Source of the DNA: a virus
Strand: one strand, 5' to 3'
Length of the DNA: 64,000 nucleotides
Virus record (IMG/VR): IMGVR_UViG_3300036828_000363
Coordinates: 1 to 64,000 of that record
Shown here: one piece after another, positions 19,262 through 48,482 of the stretch
Numbering within the stretch: the stretch's first letter is position 1
Layout: every line of letters begins with the position of its first letter
Made by a program: the position numbers and the translations under genes
The notes under the pieces: generated by a model
Database searches by the model: none
What the model was told of the DNA's origin: nothing
What the model saw: the letters and a program-made list of their open reading frames with translations, nothing else

Positions 19262-20425
19262 TTGAAGATGGTAAACGGAACTAGTCGGTTCCAGTACAGA
19301 GCACGTTCTACTACTGCTTGGGAAAAGAGAGCAGATCAGCAAGCAGGTGCGTTCATAGGTTTCGTTAAAGATCAGTACAAGCAACTTGAAGTCAGTGACG
19401 ATAACTATGGAAGAATCTTACCGCCCACATGGACAGACCCGGTTCCGGAACATTACGGGTTGGACATCTGGGTTCACTTCAGTGTCGGCCCGCTCAACGC
19501 GACTGTTTTGTGTCCTCTAAAAATGAGGATGAAGCCATGTCCTATCTGTCATGACAGACAGCTCAAAGAAGAGTCAGGCCGTGAAGATGTCAGTGAGTTG
19601 AAACCAAAGCGTCGTGTTTTGGTTTGGTGGTTAGATCGCAAGAATGAATCCCTTGGCGCGCAATATGTTGCTTTACCGTGGACTCTTGATCGTGATATCG
19701 CGGTAGTTTGCCAAGACCCCGGCACGGGCGAGCTGTACTACATCGATGACCCGTACAATGGGTACAATGTTTTCTTCAAGCGTGAAGGAAAGGGACTGAA
19801 TACCAAGTACATCGGTATCCAGCTTGACCGTAAACCGTCAGAAGTTTCTGATGCTGTTTTGAATTACATTATCGAGAATCCGCTTCCAGAAATTCTTCTG
19901 TGGAGAGATTACAACGAGTTGAAAGACTTGTACTCTGGCGCAGAAGCTGCGGCACCACCAGTAGGAACTGGCCAACCCGAGAGACCCTTACAGACTCAGT
20001 TCGCGCCTCAAGGTCAACCTGTACAGGAGCAACCCGCGGCACCTCAGCCGGCACCTGTGGTTCGCCAGCGTGTCGCGATACAACCACGTCCTGAGGCAGC
20101 TCCCGCTCCTACTCCTGCTCCAGCACCCGTGGCAGTGAGACCTATGCCCGCTCCCGCTCCACGACCTGCTCCACCACCGCCACCGCCACCGCAACAAATG
20201 GAGATGGCTGGATTCTGTCCAAAGACACTTGTCTTTGAAGGCAACCGTCTCGGATGTGGGTATGAACCTCATGATGATTCAGTCGAATGTAACTTCGTCA
20301 GAAACCTTGGCCCAGTTGCAGTGAGAGGTAATGGAGGCGCGAGTCCCGCTGCTGTGGCTGCTCAAGCTGGTTCTCCTGCTGAAACGAGAGCGAGTGGACT
20401 TAGAGCACGCTTCGGAAGCAAATAA
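19262..20425 (+). CDS. gp32-like single-stranded DNA-binding protein with Pro-rich tail
   Basis: RILPP, HF..., CP......CPIC, DPYNGY.V...REGKGLNTKY. Confidence 0.65.
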   Translation: MKMVNGTSRFQYRARSTTAWEKRADQQAGAFIGFVKDQYKQLEVSDDNYGRILPPTWTDPVPEHYGLDIWVHFSVGPLNATVLCPLKMRMKPCPICHDRQLKEESGREDVSELKPKRRVLVWWLDRKNESLGAQYVALPWTLDRDIAVVCQDPGTGELYYIDDPYNGYNVFFKREGKGLNTKYIGIQLDRKPSEVSDAVLNYIIENPLPEILLWRDYNELKDLYSGAEAAAPPVGTGQPERPLQTQFAPQGQPVQEQPAAPQPAPVVRQRVAIQPRPEAAPAPTPAPAPVAVRPMPAPAPRPAPPPPPPPQQMEMAGFCPKTLVFEGNRLGCGYEPHDDSVECNFVRNLGPVAVRGNGGASPAAVAAQAGSPAETRASGLRARFGSK

Positions 20426-39721: not shown

Positions 39722-41252
39722 AAGAGTCAAGCTAGTCCCTGCGCGGGTGAAGTTGGTGACCGTACCCGTCCCGGAACGGGTGAAGTTGGTGAAGTTGGTG
39801 ACCACGGTTCCGGTTCCAGTCCCAGCTCCGGTGAAGAAACCGCGAAGTAAAAAAGCGAAAGAACATGTCGTGGAGCACCCACCAATCCCGGTCAATTCCC
39901 TTGTCCACTACTACACCGCATCCGACAAAAAGGGTAACCAGTATGGTGAGCACTTTGGACGCGTACTGAGCTTTGATGGTTACCAGTACCATGTCACTCG
40001 CCCCAAGTACAAGAAAAATTCTGTCATCAAACTGTACCCGAGCGAAATTGAGATGATCATTCAACCTGTGAAGAGAGTAGAGTTAAAAATTTCTGTTGAC
40101 AAGTAATGTTTCTTTGGTTTATAAGAAATACCATGTCGAAATCTATTAGTCGGTATGGGAAGGTGCTGTTCAAAAATTCAATCGAGGTAACTCCCGCCAA
40201 GAGTGTATCATCTGTGCAATACATGTTGGCTGCGAACACTCAGGCACAGAAAATGTACAAGAAGGATTATGATCGCCTGAATGATAAGCAGAAACAAGCG
40301 GTTCACTATGCTCTTCGCACCAAAGAAGAGTTAGAGACGCGCAAAAACCAAGAGAGGTTTTAATGTTTCCTGTCCATGACTTCACTGATGTTGATGTCGC
40401 TTTCCCCGCTCGTGTTGTCCAGTTCATGCCTGCCTACAAAGATATCCCGGATGAATTCAGGACAGGTAATCATAAGTATGCCCAGTTCTTCCACGATTCG
40501 TTTTACTTCGGGCTGAGCAAACTTGAAATGAAACCGAGACCCGGTGTTGACCCGGAGAAGGCATTCAAACACATTCGGTGTGTCATGGGCAGTTTTGAAC
40601 CTGCTCATGAACACAAAGAAGCATCCGTCGCGTTTCTCGTGAACGAATGGTTTGAAGACGTGGTATGGGAGAGACGCCCGCGTGCTTAAATTTAAAGTGG
40701 GGCAAGTTGTGTACGTCATCGAAGATCGTGTATATGATCGTGTTCGAGCAGTGGACGCTACTAGCGAATATCCCTACAGCATGGACGGGGAGATTGGTGT
40801 GGAACACGAAGAATCTGATTTACGCGCTCTGACGGATCAGGAGAAGGGTAATGTTTGACGCGAGACAAAGCAATACTTTTACGGGAGATGACCGGGTAAC
40901 GTTTGATTGGCTGTATGAAGTTACCCGCGATGGTAGCACCTCAACCTTGATTCATGGTATGGCTTTACGTGAAGCTGAAGAGTCTCCTGCGGATTCTTAC
41001 ATGAAGATTATGGCACGTGTACGCGACTTCATGAAAGCACACTTACGTATTGTTCACGCGCCTAGTCCGAAAGACAAAGTAGAAGGATTCCTTGAAGTCG
41101 GGGTAGAGGGTAACGAAATAGTAATCAATCACCCGGATTTGAAACCTGACGAAAATGGAGTCGGCCACATTGTTTTTTCACCGAATCAGGCGCGTGGTCT
41201 CGCAACTCTCTTGTTGAAGCACGCAGATGCCGCGGAGAAGAATCGAAGCTAG
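39651..41252 (+). other. run of five short hypothetical ORFs (39651-40106, 40106-40363, 40363-40689, 40652-40858, 40851-41252)
   Basis: tightly packed + strand ORFs; TTGACA-N18-TATAAG promoter at 40096-40125. Confidence 0.5.
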
Positions 41253-41586
41253 TCAAGTTTGTTTGTTAATCAAAGAGAGGATAAAAATGTCAGTTCACCC
41301 TGCTTTTAAAGTCATGGCAAGACGGATTGGTCGCGGTTCACAACAAGTATCTTTGAGACCGTTGGTCGTGTCTCTTCAGGCGTTATTGAAAAAGTTGGAT
41401 GTAACGCCCATGACTGTTTATAATTGGCGGTGTGGAGATGTAAGTTTTCCACCCCTGCCAATAGTTAAAATTTCCCAGTATCATGTTCGCTACAACCTTT
41501 TGGAAGTCAAAAATTGGCTTTTAAAGTATCGACCTAAACGTGAACGTGTCAAATCCTTTGGATCACCTTTTTTCATTGACCGCTAA
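41227..41586 (+). CDS. excisionase/AlpA-like HTH protein (paralog of 493-798; probable start 41287)
   Basis: LDVTPMTVYNWR.G...FPPLP...YNLLEVKNWLLKYRPK. Confidence 0.6.
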   Translation: MPRRRIEASQVCLLIKERIKMSVHPAFKVMARRIGRGSQQVSLRPLVVSLQALLKKLDVTPMTVYNWRCGDVSFPPLPIVKISQYHVRYNLLEVKNWLLKYRPKRERVKSFGSPFFIDR

Positions 41587-41638
41587 GTACAAGCAACGGT
41601 TTGTTTGTTAGTAAACAATCAGCAGAAGGAGTACCTTT

Positions 41639-42307
41639 ATGGTTAAAGTTCAAGTCGCTTTTAATTTCAACGGTTCCGGTTACATCGGATTGCCTTACTG
41701 GCCCGAGCGGAACACAATCATCGACATCGGAAAAGACGTTCATCCTAAACTGGGCGCGACGAAGAAAGAGCAAGCTCTGCTCGCGGCTCTCGAAAAGCGC
41801 GGTCTCAACAAAGAGCAGTACGAAGAGATGCAGAAGAAAGCTGAGCGTCCTTTCTACACCGTGGACGGTTCCCGTGAAGGCACCATCGCCATTCCGGAAC
41901 GAATCATTCAGAGCTTCATTAACAATGCATCTATGCAGGCACCCAAAGCAATTCCGCGTGTGTCTGACAAGGGTTTGACTTTCATCGGAGTCAAGATTGC
42001 AGACAAAATGATGGTCACTGAGAAGACTATCACCGACGCGAAACTCTTCGAGCGGTTTGTCAAAATGGAAACGTCCAACCAGCGCAACTGGTGCTCCAGT
42101 TTCTACATCGATGACTTCATTGCCCGGGGCATATTCTCCGTCGATGAGGAAATCATCATGCCCGACGATTTGAAAAAGTTGATCGAGTGGGGCGGGAAAC
42201 AAATTGGTATTGGTTCCGCTCGTCCTCAGGGATATGGACGGTTTCAAGTTGCTGGCTGGGATTATCTGACTCCCGTGCCTGTGACCAAACCGATTGAAGA
42301 AGAATAA
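41639..42307 (+). CDS. solo RAMP/Cas7-like RNA-binding protein
   Basis: AGGAG RBS; N-terminal beta strand + YIG; IAIPERIIQSFINNA; C-terminal Gly-rich loop GIGSARPQGYGRFQV typical of RAMPs. Confidence 0.7.
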   Translation: MVKVQVAFNFNGSGYIGLPYWPERNTIIDIGKDVHPKLGATKKEQALLAALEKRGLNKEQYEEMQKKAERPFYTVDGSREGTIAIPERIIQSFINNASMQAPKAIPRVSDKGLTFIGVKIADKMMVTEKTITDAKLFERFVKMETSNQRNWCSSFYIDDFIARGIFSVDEEIIMPDDLKKLIEWGGKQIGIGSARPQGYGRFQVAGWDYLTPVPVTKPIEEE

Positions 42308-42353
42308 AGCCCGAGTCGGAGTCCCTGTCCCGGTTGAAGTTACAGTCAAAGAG
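42306..42353 (+). repeat. single hexamer-periodic unit directly after the RAMP stop codon
   Basis: gcc cga gtc gga gtc cct gtc ccg gtt gaa gtt aca gtc aaa. Confidence 0.75.
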
Positions 42354-42683
42354 TAAACTATGAATTATAGGCTAGCTACTTTTGCGATTATGTCTTCGAG
42401 CTTAACTTCTTCCCAGAAGGCGAAAGCACTGATGAGGTTGATGAAGCAGGCAAACCGCAAAAAGAAAAATAAATTTATACACTTGACATCCGTTTCAGAA
42501 ATTGATTAGGATGTCAGACTAGAACGTATTTCCGCGTTTTCTTTGACATCCAAGTAAACTGCCTCATGGGTAGTTCACGTTCCTTTTGTCGGTGTCGTAA
42601 CGAAGGGAACTGTAGAGAGAAAACCTGATACGTTGGGGAGCGGGGGAAATTCGACCGCCTCTGCTCCCACCAATTTTCCTACC

Positions 42684-42731
42684 AAAGCCACAGCCACAGA
42701 CTCAGTTTAAGTCGCAGACTACGCCGATGAA
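42684..42731 (+). repeat. single hexamer-periodic unit
   Basis: aaa gcc aca gcc aca gac tca gtt taa gtc gca gac tac gcc gat gaa. Confidence 0.65.
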
Positions 42732-43623
42732 ATGGTATGAGTTCGATATCGAGAACGAGACACCAGCAGAAGCGCGTGATAGACGACTGATGCAGTGTCC
42801 GCCACTTAACCACGGTGAGCTAGAAGTCCTTCGCCAATGTAAAACTACGGTATGGGATGGCTACGTTATTAGTAAACAAGCGCGAGATAATCTATATAAG
42901 CGTGGGTTGATCCTTCGCTGGAACGGTTGGCAGATAATCACGCTTGAAGGACTCGCTGTCCTTCATACACTTGGTGAGCTACGTGTCTGATTATGTGAGC
43001 TACATGTCTGACTTTTGTAGAATCGAACGAGTCAAAGCGCGTAAGCGTTATCGGTGTATTGGTTGCTATGGCCCGATTCTCAAAGGTGAAATCCACCCGT
43101 ATTATGTCGGTGTCTGGGAAGGTGACTGGGGAACGTGGAGAATGCACGAAGAGTGTTTTCAAGTCCAAGCAGATGACGATGACAGTCTTATTGCTGAAGG
43201 TGAGTTTCCTATACCACCACGGGTTAGAGTGATAATGGATAAAGAACGAGCAGGTGTACCTATTTCCCCTCATGAATTGGTGAGTCAACTATGAAAACAG
43301 AAACTAGAATTAGGAAAAGAGAAACTAAAATTAGCGACCTTCGTAGCTCTATGGAGTGGTCTAACCTTAGGTATGGCCGTAATAGTCCCGATAGTAGGAG
43401 ACTTCGTAGTGAACTACGCTCACTAGGTGTTAGTAGTGGGCTGTACGTGAGTCGCGAAAGTAAGATCAAAAATCTTCTTGATGCTCTTGATTGGTCTAAT
43501 CATATCTACGGTTGCAGGAGCAACATCAGTAGAAGGTTCCGTATAGAGCTTCGTTCACTAGGTCACTGGGGTGGCCTATACAAGTTGAACCGTTTCAAAA
43601 AGCGGAGACAAAAACAAAGATGA
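42727..43623 (+). other. three short hypothetical ORFs (42727-42990, 42944-43294 Zn-ribbon-like, 43291-43623 with internal duplication)
   Basis: operon packing; WSN..YG...SRR.R.ELRSLG..GLY occurs twice in the last ORF. Confidence 0.5.
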
Positions 43624-43818
43624 AACTTTCACTCGCCGCGCAACAACTAGAGCAAATAAAGGCTGAGCGTAATCTTTTCGGGCCTATCCGGTCATATTTG
43701 AACTGGTGTTTGCATATGTCAAAGGCGGTTGATCTATACGACCTGATTTGACATTTTCGCGAAGTTGTATCAACGTAGTAGTACCCACGGAAGAATCCGT
43801 GAACAAAGGAGTACCACA

Positions 43819-44910
43819 ATGGCAGCTAAAACTCTTAGTAAAGAGGCAGTTCTTCTGGCAGTAGCAGAAGAGAAGTTGGGTTTCTCATTCGGAAAACCAG
43901 ATCGTCCATCCGAGAAATCTTTAGCTTGTATCCTTCCTATCCTTCGGGAAACCACATTTGTCCGTCAGTATGTCACCATGCCAGAGACAGAAAACGTTCT
44001 GGTGACCGACAGTGGAATGATCAACAAAATCAATATCAAAAACACTGGGAAAGAAAACGTCTTCCTTCGCTCAGGTACTATCTTCGAAGGTAAAGGAACC
44101 CAGTCCAGAATTATTACCCGGAGCGCGGTATTGTTCCCCGGTTCGGAAGTCGCGCTCGATGCCCGGTGTGTTCACGCGAGTCATGGGATTCGTACTGGAA
44201 GCAATTTCAAGTACAGTGGCACCGTTCCAATGGATGTTGAGAACGCGAGCTACACAGCAGGTTTCACTCCAGCAGATCAACACACGGTGTGGTCAAACGT
44301 CACCAGAACTACCACGGCCATGAATGCCATGCTGGGTGGTAAAAGAGTAAGCGCGGATATTTCAGGACGTATTCCCGGTGTTCGTCACACATTCACCTCA
44401 AGTCACGGTATGTTCGGTGCTTCAATATCTACTCCGCAAGAGGAACAAGGGGAACAAGAAAGAAGCTGGCCCGGATTCGCGCAAGACAACCTAAAAAAGA
44501 ATTTTGATGAGTTCGCAGAGAACTTTGATGACATTCTTTCCAAGGCGCGCTTGCATGACAATCAGTGTGGGTTGTCTCTGATCACCGATACCGGATGCAA
44601 GACCATCGAATTGTTTGATGTCCCGTTGTCATGGGAGTCACTCCACAAAGACGCGGTCAAACGTATGGGCACAGAACTACTGAGAGGCGAAGACAAAACC
44701 AGTGTGTTCGAGTACAAACCCGAGCACGCAGTCAACGCCGTCAAAAAAGTTCTGACGATGGACTTCAAAGCAAATATGATCTACGAGCACAAACCAGCAA
44801 ACGGTGAACCACATGTCGCAATCTTCGGACTAACCTCGAAGCAGTACGTTGGTGAGGTGGTGGAGATGAGCGGGCAGATGATTCACTTGACCATTTTAGA
44901 AATGGCATAG
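43819..44910 (+). CDS. ARPP-1/DUF6569-like protein
   Basis: AAGGAG RBS; N.G...VFL..G.IFEG...Q.RII......V..RCVH...Q..VW..V. Confidence 0.55.
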   Translation: MAAKTLSKEAVLLAVAEEKLGFSFGKPDRPSEKSLACILPILRETTFVRQYVTMPETENVLVTDSGMINKINIKNTGKENVFLRSGTIFEGKGTQSRIITRSAVLFPGSEVALDARCVHASHGIRTGSNFKYSGTVPMDVENASYTAGFTPADQHTVWSNVTRTTTAMNAMLGGKRVSADISGRIPGVRHTFTSSHGMFGASISTPQEEQGEQERSWPGFAQDNLKKNFDEFAENFDDILSKARLHDNQCGLSLITDTGCKTIELFDVPLSWESLHKDAVKRMGTELLRGEDKTSVFEYKPEHAVNAVKKVLTMDFKANMIYEHKPANGEPHVAIFGLTSKQYVGEVVEMSGQMIHLTILEMA

Positions 44911-45404
44911 TCCAAGTCATTGACATGGTCAAAGTTGAAGCCGAAGTCCAAGAAGCCGGAGTCCCAGTTTTAGTTTAAGTCATTGCCAAAGTCGAAGTTT
45001 AAGAAGCCGAAGTTGAAGACGCAGTTTTAGTCCAAGTCTGGGCGCAGTCATAGAAGCCGAAGTCGCGGTCTATGTCGAAGTTATAGCCTTAGTCAAAGAA
45101 GCCGCAGTCAAAGTTTGAGTCCTTAGCAATGACAAGGTTTAAGTCGAAGTCTGAGAAGCCTGAGTCCGAGTCAAAGCTTGAGCTATGGTTGATGTTTAAG
45201 TCTGAGCTTAAGTCGAAGCAGCCGTAGTCTAAGTCCTAGCTAGGTCTAGGTTCTAGTCGAAGTCAAGGTCGTAGAAGCCGAAGTCGGAGTCACAGTTGCA
45301 GTTGAAGTCATAGCATGGACATAGACGAAGTCTAGGTTTGAGTCTAAGAAGCTAGTGTCAAAGTTCTAGTTGTAGTCGAAGTCGTAGTCTAAGTTGAAGT
45401 CGCA
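44905..45404 (+). repeat. non-coding hexamer-periodic array 1 (about 9 units)
   Basis: units of GAA + (GYY-NN-A)n; stop codons in all six frames. Confidence 0.9.
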
Positions 45405-45422
45405 AAATCAGGAGTTTTTTTA

Positions 45423-45587
45423 ATGATCATGGATTTTACTGCAACTAAAAGATTTTTGGAATTGCTTCGTAAGCAAAATATGGATGGCAAGGTGTCCAAG
45501 TTGCAATTCGAACTTGAAGCATTACTTCTGCTTGCTGATGCTCAGAACAGTAAAAATTCCCAGCCCAAGTCGTGGTTAAAGTCATAG
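45423..45587 (+). CDS. 54-aa ORF embedded between the arrays
   Basis: GGAG RBS; MIMDFTATKRFLELLRKQ...SWLKS. Confidence 0.5.
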   Translation: MIMDFTATKRFLELLRKQNMDGKVSKLQFELEALLLLADAQNSKNSQPKSWLKS

Positions 45588-46712
45588 TTACAGTCAAAGA
45601 AGCCATAGCCGAAGTCCGAGTTCAAGACAAAGCAATGACTAAGTCTTAGAAGCCGGAGCGCGGTCACAGTTCATGTTTAAGCCGTAGTCACAGAAGTCGT
45701 AGTCGGTGTCAAAGTTTCAGGCACAGTCCTAGTTTTAGTCGAAGAAGCCGGAGTCGCAGTTATAGACCCAGACATAGACGTAGTCGAAGGAAAAGTCGAA
45801 GCATAGTCGTAGACTAAGCAAAGTCGAAGTAGCCGAAGTCAAAGCTTCAGTGGAGTCGAAGTCCAAGTCATAGTCTTTGGCGTTGTCATAGTCTCAGAAG
45901 CTGCTGTCCCAGTCTAAGTTGAAGACGTTGTCTAAGTCGTAGAAGCTTGAGTCACAGTCGAAGTTGCTGTTCTAGTCGGAGTCGTAGTCAGAGTCAAAGA
46001 AGCCAAAGTCTTTGCTTAAGTCTCGTTCCATGTCTAAGTCGTGGAAGCTGAAGTCGTAGTCGAAGTCAAGGCAATGTCGCGGTTATAGTCTTAGTCAAAG
46101 GCGCGGAAGTCGTAGCCGCAGTTGAAGACCGAGTCCCAGACTACGTTAAAGTCAAAGAAGCTGAAGTCAAAGCCTAGTCGTGGTCGTAGCTCAAGTCACA
46201 GTCGTAGTCAAAGAAGCCATAGTCGCAGTTGAAGTCGAAGTTCAAGTCACAGTCATAGAAGCCAAAGTCTGAGTCAAAGTTAGGGACGATGTTCAGGTCA
46301 ATGTTTAAGAAGCTTAAGTCACAGTTATAGTCGAAGCTCAGTCAAGATCACTGTCCTAGTCAAAGAAGCCGAAGTCATAGTTGGAGTCGAAGTTATAGTT
46401 GAAGTCGTAGCTAGGTCATAGTCTCAGAAGCCATAGTCGAAGACAGAGACATGGTCGTAGTCTTAGTCGCAGTTGAAGTCGAAGAAGCCATAGCCAAAGT
46501 TCAAGTCGCGGATTCAGTCGAAGTCGAAGTTCTAGCACAGTTGCAGTCAAAGGCATAGTCCAAGAAGTCTAAGTCAAAGTCAAGGCCTTAGTCGAAGTCG
46601 AAGTCCTAGAAGTCTCAGTCTCAGTTAATGTTGCAGTCTATGGCTACGTCTCAGAAGCTGAAGTCACGGTCATAGTTCAAGTCAAAGTCTTAGTCATAGC
46701 CGAAGTCATGGA
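45559..46712 (+). repeat. non-coding hexamer-periodic array 2 (about 21 units)
   Basis: same grammar; units about 45-80 nt; ends at the stop codon of the convergent gene. Confidence 0.9.
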
Positions 46713-47389
46713 AAAGTAATTTGTGTTCTAGCACCATCTTCTGCCCATTTGATGATCGATGGTAGTCTGGATTCCAGTTTGAAATGTGATACCCATTTCA
46801 GCATTTTTTCTAACGTGTCCAGTACCCGAAGAGTATTCTCTTCCGTCCTGTCCAGATGATGAGAACATAGCCCACCACGTGTTTTCATATCTGCTTGCAT
46901 CATATTCCTAACTCCAGCTTTTTCCTGTCCACCACTCAAAGTGAAAAATTCTTTCGGAACCATGAAATGCCTAAACCGAATACCTGCTGGATAGCTACAG
47001 TGAAATGGAATAGTAGTTGAGTATAGCTCACATCCATAGTTTTCCCTGTTCAAATACTTGCAGTGTTCCTTTCCCGGTAAGCAGTTATCCATTACTGAGA
47101 TAATAGGAAATTTCTCCCCGTTGAATTCAATCTGACGTTCTACCCCGCCTTCGTGTTTCTCTCCCGGTAGCCAGTCCAGTGTCGCTCTACTACAACATGC
47201 TCCACACCCCAACTTACATTCAAAGCGAAGAAATAAATCCGGTTTGACGATTAGTTCCACTGGTTGAAAAGTTCTACCCGCATATCGAAATGGTTTTACT
47301 GCTAGCGCATGAAACCATACTTCAATCATTGATGCCACCATGTCGGATGGTTTACTGCCACCATTTCGAATTTGAATAAGTTCTAGCAT
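46706..47389 (-). CDS. Cys-cluster (YkgJ/CxxCxxCC-like) protein
   Basis: FECKLGCGACC...CKYL....CELY...P..C..YP. Confidence 0.55.
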   Translation of the reverse strand: MLELIQIRNGGSKPSDMVASMIEVWFHALAVKPFRYAGRTFQPVELIVKPDLFLRFECKLGCGACCSRATLDWLPGEKHEGGVERQIEFNGEKFPIISVMDNCLPGKEHCKYLNRENYGCELYSTTIPFHCSYPAGIRFRHFMVPKEFFTLSGGQEKAGVRNMMQADMKTRGGLCSHHLDRTEENTLRVLDTLEKMLKWVSHFKLESRLPSIIKWAEDGARTQITFP

Positions 47390-47576
47390 AGTTAAATCTT
47401 AGAATACTACCATTCTAAAACTAAGGTAATTTATTTTACCAGACACCCTCACTCGCACTTGACATCCCCTACGATCCGAGTACCATAATCTTCATCTAGA
47501 CTTGTGTTTATTCACAATTATGTCTGGTTACAGACATAGCCAGATAATAGTTGGTTTATGAGCACTATCGGATTCT

Positions 47577-48482
47577 ATGGACAATTCGCCTCAAGAAACA
47601 AGATTTATTCCTCGTCGTGTCCCATTAGTCTTCTCGACTGAAAAACCAGTTACACCTCAAAAACAAGAGAAGTTCAAAAAATCCCGTCAAAATAGCATTA
47701 AGAAGGCGAGCGAGAAAAAGAGAGAAGCACGGAAAAAGCAAGAAATTTCAAATCAGTTTCTCTCAGTAGGTCAGGTTACCCAGTCCGGGAAGCTCACAGT
47801 TAGGCAATCTCTATTTGTCAGATACTTAGTTGAAGACCCCAAGTTTTCAGCTACAGCTGCAGCAGAAAAAGTTGGCTATGCCAATCCAGCCGCAGTAGGT
47901 TCGAATCTACTTAAGCATCCCATAGTATCAGCAGAGATAAAACGCTTACTTAAGATCACCTCAAGGCATCTTGAAATCTCCGCTGAGAAAACCCTTTCAG
48001 AGATTGCTAATATCGCTTATTCCAATGTCTATGATTACCTTTCGGTTAACCCAGATGGATCATGGACATTTGACCTGAAGAACATAAATCGTAATCAGGC
48101 ATCGGCTATTCAGGAGATAGTTACAGAGGAAGAGATACTCCGGGAACCCGTTACGATTGATGGAGTTAAACGATATACGAAGGTGCGCCGAACCAAGTTT
48201 AAACTCCATGACAAGCTGTCCGCGCTCAATACGTTGACTAAGTTCCAGCAACTCATGCCAAAAGAGGAACCTGAGTCTACCACCAACGTTACTATTAATG
48301 TACTAGACGCGATTATCAATGGCACAATCGGGAGCATGAATGTCCAACAGTTGACAGAGGGAAGCGATCATCCAGCAAGGAAGTTGCCTAATGGTTTTGG
48401 TGCTCAAGCTCAGGCAGCTAGAAGAGCGATAGTTAATGGAAGCAATGGTAATCCTCAGACTATCGAAGGTAGCTTACCATGA
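47577..48482 (+). CDS. terminase small subunit
   Basis: LTVRQSLFV.Y......ATAAAEKVGY.......LLK.P.V...I; KLHDKLSAL..L. Confidence 0.8.
   Translation: MDNSPQETRFIPRRVPLVFSTEKPVTPQKQEKFKKSRQNSIKKASEKKREARKKQEISNQFLSVGQVTQSGKLTVRQSLFVRYLVEDPKFSATAAAEKVGYANPAAVGSNLLKHPIVSAEIKRLLKITSRHLEISAEKTLSEIANIAYSNVYDYLSVNPDGSWTFDLKNINRNQASAIQEIVTEEEILREPVTIDGVKRYTKVRRTKFKLHDKLSALNTLTKFQQLMPKEEPESTTNVTINVLDAIINGTIGSMNVQQLTEGSDHPARKLPNGFGAQAQAARRAIVNGSNGNPQTIEGSLP

Follow-up and report, generated by a model that had tools for sequence, protein, structure and literature searches.

A compact locus in an uncultured phage (virus record IMGVR_UViG_3300036828_000363 of IMG/VR) combines a gene for a 222-amino-acid (aa) RAMP protein, named here the vipr-like gene, with long arrays of six-base repeats. 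The record possesses 93,235 bases with 46% G+C, and its first 64 kb (64,000 nucleotides, nt), the stretch analysed, is referred to as the window. The vipr-like gene, both arrays and the intervening genes are all situated on the + strand. A Vipr-related RAMP gene is tightly and conservedly linked to same-strand, non-coding G-(T/C)-Y-N-N-(A) arrays in which only the two N positions (NN) are free. VIPR systems, described in 2026, consist of a phage-encoded ancestral RAMP protein and vrRNAs of 9-16 GGY/NN repeats with a 5-nt period (bioRxiv 10.64898/2026.04.26.720920). Each repeat is occupied by one protomer, and the GGY bases are flipped out by the thumb and held by two adjacent protomers (bioRxiv 10.64898/2026.04.26.720920, 10.64898/2026.04.26.720927). 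The NN bases pair with DNA while one target base, mostly the codon wobble, is skipped, and the systems silence rival phages and satellites (bioRxiv 10.64898/2026.04.26.720920). A preliminary description of the window, made from the sequence, had mentioned viral systems with GGY/NN guides and a 5-nt period, and these do exist (bioRxiv 10.64898/2026.04.26.720920).

The arrays were recognized by base identity at a lag of 6 nt, which reached 0.49-0.54 over positions 44900-45400 and 45500-46750; the whole window averages 0.277 (standard deviation 0.048). A phase-tracking parse of the arrays gave 250 complete in-phase hexamers with the consensus G-T-Y-N-N-A. Position 1 is G in 99% of the hexamers, position 2 is T in 74% and C in 16%, and position 3 is C in 75% and T in 25% and never a purine. 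Positions 4 and 5 are nearly free (0.10 and 0.23 bits), and position 6 is A in 82%. The hexamers are grouped in units of 6-13 repeats bounded by GAA inserts; at most unit boundaries a 3-nt insert, chiefly GAA, is followed by a hexamer which is usually GCY. The remaining phase breaks lie inside units and are 5-nt repeats of the form G-C-N-N-A, without position 2 (12 of 255 repeats). Hexamer-periodic units, a mostly GAA punctuation and 2-nt GC variants had all been reported in the preliminary description and proved real, the GC variants being these 5-nt repeats. It counted ~32 units, with ~9 and ~21 in the two arrays; the parse gives ~34 units in total, ~10-11 in array A, ~22 in array B and two isolated ones, both of which had also been described. 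The NN strings of all units differ and no identical pair was found, as had been claimed. The array tracts have stops in all frames and the longest ORF (open reading frame) wholly within either array does not exceed 46 aa, in agreement with the earlier statement that they are non-coding. The sole other lag-6 window above 0.40, at 20101-20400, is the Pro/Ala-rich tail of a 387-aa ORF (19262-20425). The ORF after it has a similar PAPAP tail, and this is ordinary low-complexity coding sequence.

The 222-aa ORF carries the Gly-rich loop GIGSARPQGYGRF as described before, and this sequence forms its G-loop. No Pfam family matched the protein. An AlphaFold2 model built on 28 homologues had a mean pLDDT (predicted local distance difference test) of 88. 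Foldseek search of the model against PDB retrieved Csm3 and type VII Cas7 chains (E 1.7e-6, probability 1.0, TM ~0.5). Comparison by VIA-align, run all against representatives, placed Csm3, Cmr4, Cmr6, type VII Cas7 and gRAMP domains at the top (Z 10-12.5), the best with Z 12.5 and a root mean square deviation of 4.2 over 141 residues. A structure search against viral models gave just three matches at E ≤ 0.001, all viral proteins of ~190-250 aa, one of which is named RAMP superfamily protein. The protein is thus modelled as a Cas7/Csm3-type RAMP fold with a single RRM, and the RAMP fold predicted in the preliminary description was borne out by the model. Its elements follow in the order strand 1, three helices (21-33, 40-53 and 58-68), helix-1 (87-100), a beta-hairpin (135-157), helix-2, the G-loop (190-202) and the last strand. 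Vipr is described with the same order of RRM core, inserted helical bundle, thumb and G-loop, the three helices of the model standing at the topological place of the bundle. The predicted complex of three protein copies scored 0.00, which gives no verdict either way.

At the sequence level, SUSP1 Vipr was the sole match of the family profile among PDB sequences (hmmsearch, E 9e-5). Alignment of the family profile with SUSP1 Vipr by hhalign gave a probability of 94.5% and E 7.7e-8 over the last 57 residues. Similarly, the only meaningful PHROG match was phrog_4652 (E 1.6e-6), which is the SUSP1 Vipr family and matches the SUSP1 genome at E 2e-98. Among distant family members, 7 of 23 matched this PHROG and no other PHROG was matched. 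In the aligned G-loop, a weak alignment, the pyrimidine-contacting arginine of SUSP1 is retained, while D177 and W178 of SUSP1, which read the two G's, correspond to Ser and Ala and the loop is one residue longer. These substitutions would fit a changed fixed motif.

Close homologues of the protein numbered 96 at E ≤ 0.001. They come mostly from JGI and ENA metagenomes, and one was found in a Terracidiphilus metagenome-assembled genome (MAG) of NCBI. DNA and protein searches of a phage collection gave no relative of the locus or the protein among cultured phages. Out of 26 close-homologue loci, 24 showed a lag-6 tract directly downstream of the gene, beginning at the stop codon or no more than some tens of bases from it. 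On closer reading, a single short hexamer unit was seen in L012/L013 and an array in L024, and L026 is only a weak partial match. Nineteen parsed loci share the grammar G-(T/C)-C-N-N-(A, or T in three loci), with units of 6-16 repeats and 3-nt inserts, mostly GAA, at 126 of 135 unit boundaries. The check proposed in the preliminary description, whether homologues co-occur with periodic arrays, came out in its favour almost without exception. A profile search against 1.84 billion cluster representatives returned 248 clusters at 50% identity (E ≤ 0.001), mostly from soil and peat phages. No other gene was found to be conserved beside the vipr-like gene in the 22 loci compared.

These data decide against the reading of the tracts as ordinary repeat, low-complexity coding or structural DNA unrelated to the RAMP gene. 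Lag-6 periodicity does occur in the Pro/Ala-rich coding stretch 20101-20400. The array tracts, however, have stops in all frames with no ORF above 46 aa, they shift phase by 3 and 5 nt, and they keep strict adjacency to the RAMP gene across clades down to ~30-45% identity. The co-occurrence data have already refuted this reading, and its probability is taken as next to nil.

In the three loci whose repeats end in T and not A (L019, L020 and L021), the G-loop has Ser or Cys for Ala (GS[S/C]RPQGY) and the thumb residues differ. The T-ending repeats and these residue changes may represent a protein-RNA co-variation, seen in very few independent lineages. In an Acidobacteriota MAG (G001:C11:225566-226203; L031/L032), the vipr-like gene matches in two pieces in different frames, and the array is intact; either the gene is frameshifted or the assembly is in error. 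A strong + strand hairpin followed by a T run lies between the vipr-like gene and the first repeat at L010:10640-10690 and L016:8801-8850. Such a terminator-like hairpin may determine how much protein mRNA is made relative to array RNA; alternatively, transcription of the arrays may start separately.

A distant sister clade with the G-loop GIGASRKMGWGRF was represented by 17 IMG/VR loci, which share 35-45% identity among themselves. Arrays with a 6-nt period lie next to the gene in all 17, on its upstream side, its downstream side or both. The repeat is C-G-C-C-N-N or, together with an in-phase handle, T-G-G-C-N-N. Runs of C-G-C-C-N-N in phase continue uninterrupted for up to 96 hexamers (L046:2318-2893) and 109 hexamers (L050:4624-5277), and L048 shows such runs too. 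T-G-G-C-N-N, which is GGC/NN plus one T, is used in L049 and L050, and the recurring in-phase handle contains GACTTAGCT. Guide boundaries in the sister clades are marked otherwise than by a 3-nt insert. As the sister-clade runs are uninterrupted, the 3-nt punctuation is specific to the window's own clade. A neighbouring Vipr-like clade of 80 loci, which matches the family profile only C-terminally and carries canonical GGC/NN pentamers, was taken as the control. With one common metric for all three clades, the strongest short period was 6 nt in 21 of 22 loci of the window's clade and in 17 of 17 loci of the sister clade, and 5 nt in 63 of 80 control loci. Repeat length follows the protein clade.

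Comparison with described systems gave VIPR as the nearest. The type II exemplar, Escherichia phage SUSP1 (KT454805.2; PDB 36pp), has a minimal phage locus without cas genes, as here. Going by the model, both use a small single-RRM RAMP protein of ~200-220 aa with a G-loop and thumb, with helices predicted here at the place of the Vipr bundle, and homology is detectable in the C-terminal strand, helix and G-loop region. In both, the arrays lie on the strand of the gene, a G and then a pyrimidine precede two hypervariable bases, several guides are present per locus, and NN usage is alike (r 0.84). The locus differs from VIPR in the step of 6 nt instead of 5 nt, in the fixed A-G-T-Y (G-T-Y plus A) instead of GGY, and in ~34 guides against 4 in SUSP1. 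Unlike type II, which has a structured 3' tail, it shows no conserved 3' tail or pseudoknot and its units abut with a 3-nt insert. Types I and V, among the seven types published, have a ribozyme between guides, and no ribozyme match was obtained between guides here. Staggered VIPR arrays also have no long tails, and a guide ends where the next begins, as here (fig. S18, bioRxiv 10.64898/2026.04.26.720920). Non-canonical VIPR repeats WGT/NN, GAC/NN, CAC/NN and TGH/NN show that fixed triplets besides GGY are tolerated (bioRxiv 10.64898/2026.10.21.760802), and WGT/NN resembles the A-G-T of the present repeat. Staggered and non-canonical VIPR repeats are all 5-mers, however, whereas a sixth base is present here in more than 95% of the repeats.

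The pentanucleotide period is the feature on which the placing of this locus turns. The methods of the VIPR paper give only YNNGG, NNNGG, YNNNG and NNNNG repeats, and the legend of its fig. S17 reads 'pentanucleotide motif across types' (bioRxiv 10.64898/2026.04.26.720920). A survey of periodic intergenic arrays reported periods of 5, 18, 60-79, 10, 8 and 7 nt and modelled VIPR repeats as 5-mers (bioRxiv 10.64898/2026.10.21.760802). Here the period is 6, as in 38 of 39 related loci. The locus is therefore regarded as a six-base variant and not as a member of a described VIPR type, since the pentanucleotide period is defining as published. The distinct 6-nt variant proposed in the preliminary description stands for the same reason, as all published repeats are pentamers. 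The clade might nevertheless be within the seven published types, or be described elsewhere, with the same mechanism and the six-base repeat not spelled out. The VIPR paper does speak of GGY/NN 'or a related consensus' and of staggered arrays (bioRxiv 10.64898/2026.04.26.720920), and the Terracidiphilus MAG member in NCBI could have been reached by a PSI-BLAST of NR. Opposed to this are the 5-mers-only methods and the legend just quoted, the absence of any six-base repeat from the text of the discovery paper (figures and data files aside) and of six-base wording from the texts of the periodicity survey and the satellite-competition preprint, and the absence of the protein from the cultured phages of the phage collection. 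Prior description of the clade is hence considered unlikely, and the six-base repeat is new with respect to the VIPR literature texts, which describe 5-nt repeats only. Most likely the locus works like VIPR and its protein is related to Vipr.

Class 1 Cas7 backbones (Csm3, Cmr4, type VII Cas7 and Cascade Cas7) were the best structural matches (Z 10-12.5), and each Cas7 protomer covers 6 nt of the guide. In Cas7 filaments, five of the six bases are paired, while only two of six vary here. The locus also has no CRISPR repeats or spacers and is without Cas5, Cas6, Cas10, Cas1 and Cas2. Cas1 and Pfam RAMP models had no match across the 93-kb record and a k-mer scan of the record showed no CRISPR-like repeat array, so the earlier statement that no other cas gene is present was upheld. 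Many 18-mers with 3-5 copies each were seen at ~70600-79000 of the record, outside the window; these words are not CRISPR-like and resemble a repeat-rich structural gene. TIGR-Tas likewise forms non-CRISPR tandem short-guide arrays in phages, with an effector which has a Nop domain and not RAMP. Its 18-nt periodicity and its effector FpTasA are both unlike this locus (bioRxiv 10.64898/2026.10.21.760802).

The turnover of units was visible in a closely related phage (L001), which is syntenic with the locus. Its protein is 94% identical, and nucleotide identity is 88% in the vipr-like gene and 83% in the neighbouring ARPP-1 gene. The arrays of the two phages align just in short, shuffled patches of 63-79% identity. 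Seven guides are common to both, with identical or near-identical NN strings in changed order, and all others are unique to one phage or the other. As the shared guides are reordered and the rest are unique, the units behave as exchangeable modules with turnover faster than that of the genes. Specificity elements are expected to turn over in this way; a scaffold is not. In isolated unit 2, the NN string has 7/8 identity with a unit in the matching relative place of the related phage (L001:10808).

This observation bears on the possibility that the RAMP protein binds the arrays without their being programmable guides, the array RNA serving as scaffold, as storage or decoy RNA which soaks up rival Vipr, or as cis-regulatory element. 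No target turned up in any skip-rule search, and a unit 1 nt past the stop codon of the protein gene would suit autoregulation. A scaffold or decoy, however, needs the fixed bases alone, yet NN is hypervariable and no unit repeats another. Phages whose flanking genes are 83-88% identical differ by the gain, loss and rearrangement of whole units, and NN usage agrees with that of canonical VIPR guides and with codon positions 1-2. A non-guide role is accordingly held to be quite improbable.

The features of the locus are collected in Table 1. The gene between the vipr-like gene and array A encodes a protein with ARPP-1, a conflict-system-associated domain, and is kept in L001 and not elsewhere in the family. 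It was considered as a conserved accessory and rejected, being common only to the nearest relative; it is context and could be a lineage-specific accessory gene. The small ORF between the arrays shows 74% nt identity to L001:13242-13370. The domain match of the convergent gene after array B (E 1.6e-4) is marginally below the Pfam cut-off. A small terminase subunit gene is positioned just 3' of the locus. PADLOC gave no match for the locus proteins, and an Rfam scan of 40000-48000 returned no family, hammerhead included, at E up to 1.

Table 1. Features of the vipr-like locus, in window coordinates
Feature	Position	Strand	Basis
vipr-like gene, 222-aa single-RRM RAMP protein (predicted), G-loop residues 190-202	41639..42307	+	AlphaFold2 model, RAMP/Cas7 fold, SUSP1 Vipr homology
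Isolated guide-like unit 1, seven hexamers, GCC first, 1 nt past vipr-like stop codon	42309..42350	+	Parse
Isolated guide-like unit 2, ~7 hexamers, reaches start codon of 87-aa ORF	42687..42728	+	Parse
ARPP-1-domain protein gene, between vipr-like gene and array A	43819..44910	+	Pfam PF20208, E 8.9e-22
Array A, ~10-11 units, hexamer phase begins at ARPP-1 gene stop codon	44904..45404	+	Lag-6 and parse
54-aa ORF with own ribosome-binding site, between arrays, 3' end overlaps array B unit 1	45423..45587	+	
Array B, ~22 units of 6-13 repeats, up to stop codon of convergent gene	45557..46712	+	Lag-6 and parse
Convergent 227-aa gene, stop codon touches array B end	46706-47389	-	Weak CxxCxxCC zinc/iron-chelating domain match

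Between the isolated units, the word TTGACATCC occurs twice (window 42483-42560; ~42484 and 42544). The first copy falls within a promoter-like site (10/12 matches) and forms an inverted repeat with GGATGTCA 18 nt downstream. The site could serve the small ORFs and arrays that follow it as promoter or operator. Promoters and terminators were predicted no more often than in shuffled sequence. When 291 nt of array B were folded, the z scores (-1.8 for the + strand, -2.5 for the - strand) were uninformative as to RNA structure.

The usage of the NN bases was compared with that of known guides. In the control clade, every canonical pentamer run (122 of 122) is found on the same strand as its own vipr gene. 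NN usage of the hexamer arrays correlates with that of canonical pentamer guides as read on the + strand, and after reverse complementation r falls to -0.14. For the window arrays alone, r is 0.77. As the correlation is found on the + strand only, and together with the gene layout, the + strand is likely the RNA strand. The 54-aa ORF between the arrays would also support polycistronic transcription of the + strand. NN frequencies of the window further correlate with sense codon positions 1-2 of the long ORFs of the phage (r 0.79, permutation p 5.6e-4), while the other five codon registers gave r of 0.19 or less. Pooling 1,181 NN pairs from 17 other loci gave r 0.68 with codon positions 1-2, and the T-G-G-C-N-N clade gave r 0.77. 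Codon-like NN usage fits VIPR guides which read codons and skip the wobble base. This signal is suggestive only, because constraints protecting the register could bias NN similarly, and a target step of 3 would fit it as well as one of 6.

The same signal would be expected if the minus strand (R-A-C-T-N-N) were the functional RNA, with NN antisense to codon positions 1-2 and the complex binding mRNAs like a type III Cas7 backbone, not DNA, as sense-codon-like NN is the pattern that an antisense guide leaves on the other strand. Array B adjoins the convergent minus-strand gene 46706-47389, and in some relatives the terminator-like hairpin of the + strand stands between gene and array. The layout speaks differently. 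Arrays start at, or few bases from, the stop codons of + strand genes, the ORF between the arrays has its ribosome-binding site on the + strand, and a sister-clade array stops just short of the ribosome-binding site of the vipr-like gene. Co-orientation of the pentamer runs with the gene is complete (122/122), the + reading gives G..Y-NN like GGY/NN, and the NN match is r 0.84 on the + strand against -0.14 on the other. A minus-strand RNA is judged very improbable.

Several results weigh against a VIPR-type reading of the locus. Sequence homology to Vipr is confined to the C-terminal ~57 residues. No vap gene is conserved in the 22 loci compared, there is no conserved 3' tail or pseudoknot of the type II vrRNA kind, and some relatives carry the terminator-like hairpin between gene and array. 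The codon-like signal is ambiguous in the C-G-C-C-N-N sister clade, and part of the codon-likeness could come from constraints on composition which maintain the repeat register. Target searches were also negative. All parsed guides were searched with skips of 0-4 in 0.53 Mb and 0.79 Mb (both strands counted), a set made of the 93-kb record and the retrieved related loci, and did no better than shuffled guides. Exact gapped patterns gave 0 matches in IMG/VR for three guides with skip 1 and one guide with skip 4. One guide searched with ≤2 mismatches in 401 Acidobacteriota genomes gave one match, which is chance level. The sensitivity of these searches is far below that of the 80%-match profile search used for VIPR (bioRxiv 10.64898/2026.04.26.720920).

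Taking both sides together, the locus is probably a phage VIPR-type RNA-guided system with a six-base repeat in place of five. The arrays would be transcribed on the + strand together with the flanking genes, and the protein would polymerise along the resulting RNA, each hexamer taking one protomer. As in SUSP1 Vipr, the fixed bases, here G and Y plus the clade-specific positions 2 and 6, would be gripped by the G-loop, thumb and helix-1, and each NN pair would be presented for base pairing. Each unit of 6-13 repeats may represent one guide. Because the 3-nt GAA insert shifts the 6-nt phase, it would end one filament, or mark a cleavage site, and start the next. The ~34 guides may direct binding to, and silencing of, genes of competing phages, satellites or prophages. 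The NN pairs are proposed to read codon positions 1-2 of the coding strand, and the target step would be a multiple of three, 3 or 6 bases per repeat.

A wider proposal is advanced with much less confidence. The six-base family could form a separate RNA-guided branch, with six RNA bases per protomer, of which the protein would hold four and two would be read out, and either an RNA:DNA step ratio other than the published 5:3 or a target step of 6. Its guides would stand back to back, set off only by the 3-nt register shift without a repeat handle, and would be taken almost only from the coding sense strand in codon phase. In this full form the proposal is rather doubtful. If true, it would give a second programmable code beside GGY/NN.

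VIPR is a discovery only months old, and the published work rests on a 5-nt repeat with one protomer per GGY plus NN. It represents a non-contiguous RNA code for DNA recognition and has been proposed as an ancestor of CRISPR effectors. A large sister family which keeps the G...Y-NN logic with a 6-nt step shows that repeat length can evolve with the protein, and it amounts to a natural experiment on how pairing geometry depends on the protomer step. The family also adds a set of compact effectors whose guide syntax differs, among it multi-guide arrays with a 3-nt frameshift as punctuation. The present locus is a rich example of it, with ~34 guides and a close relative which exposes guide turnover directly.

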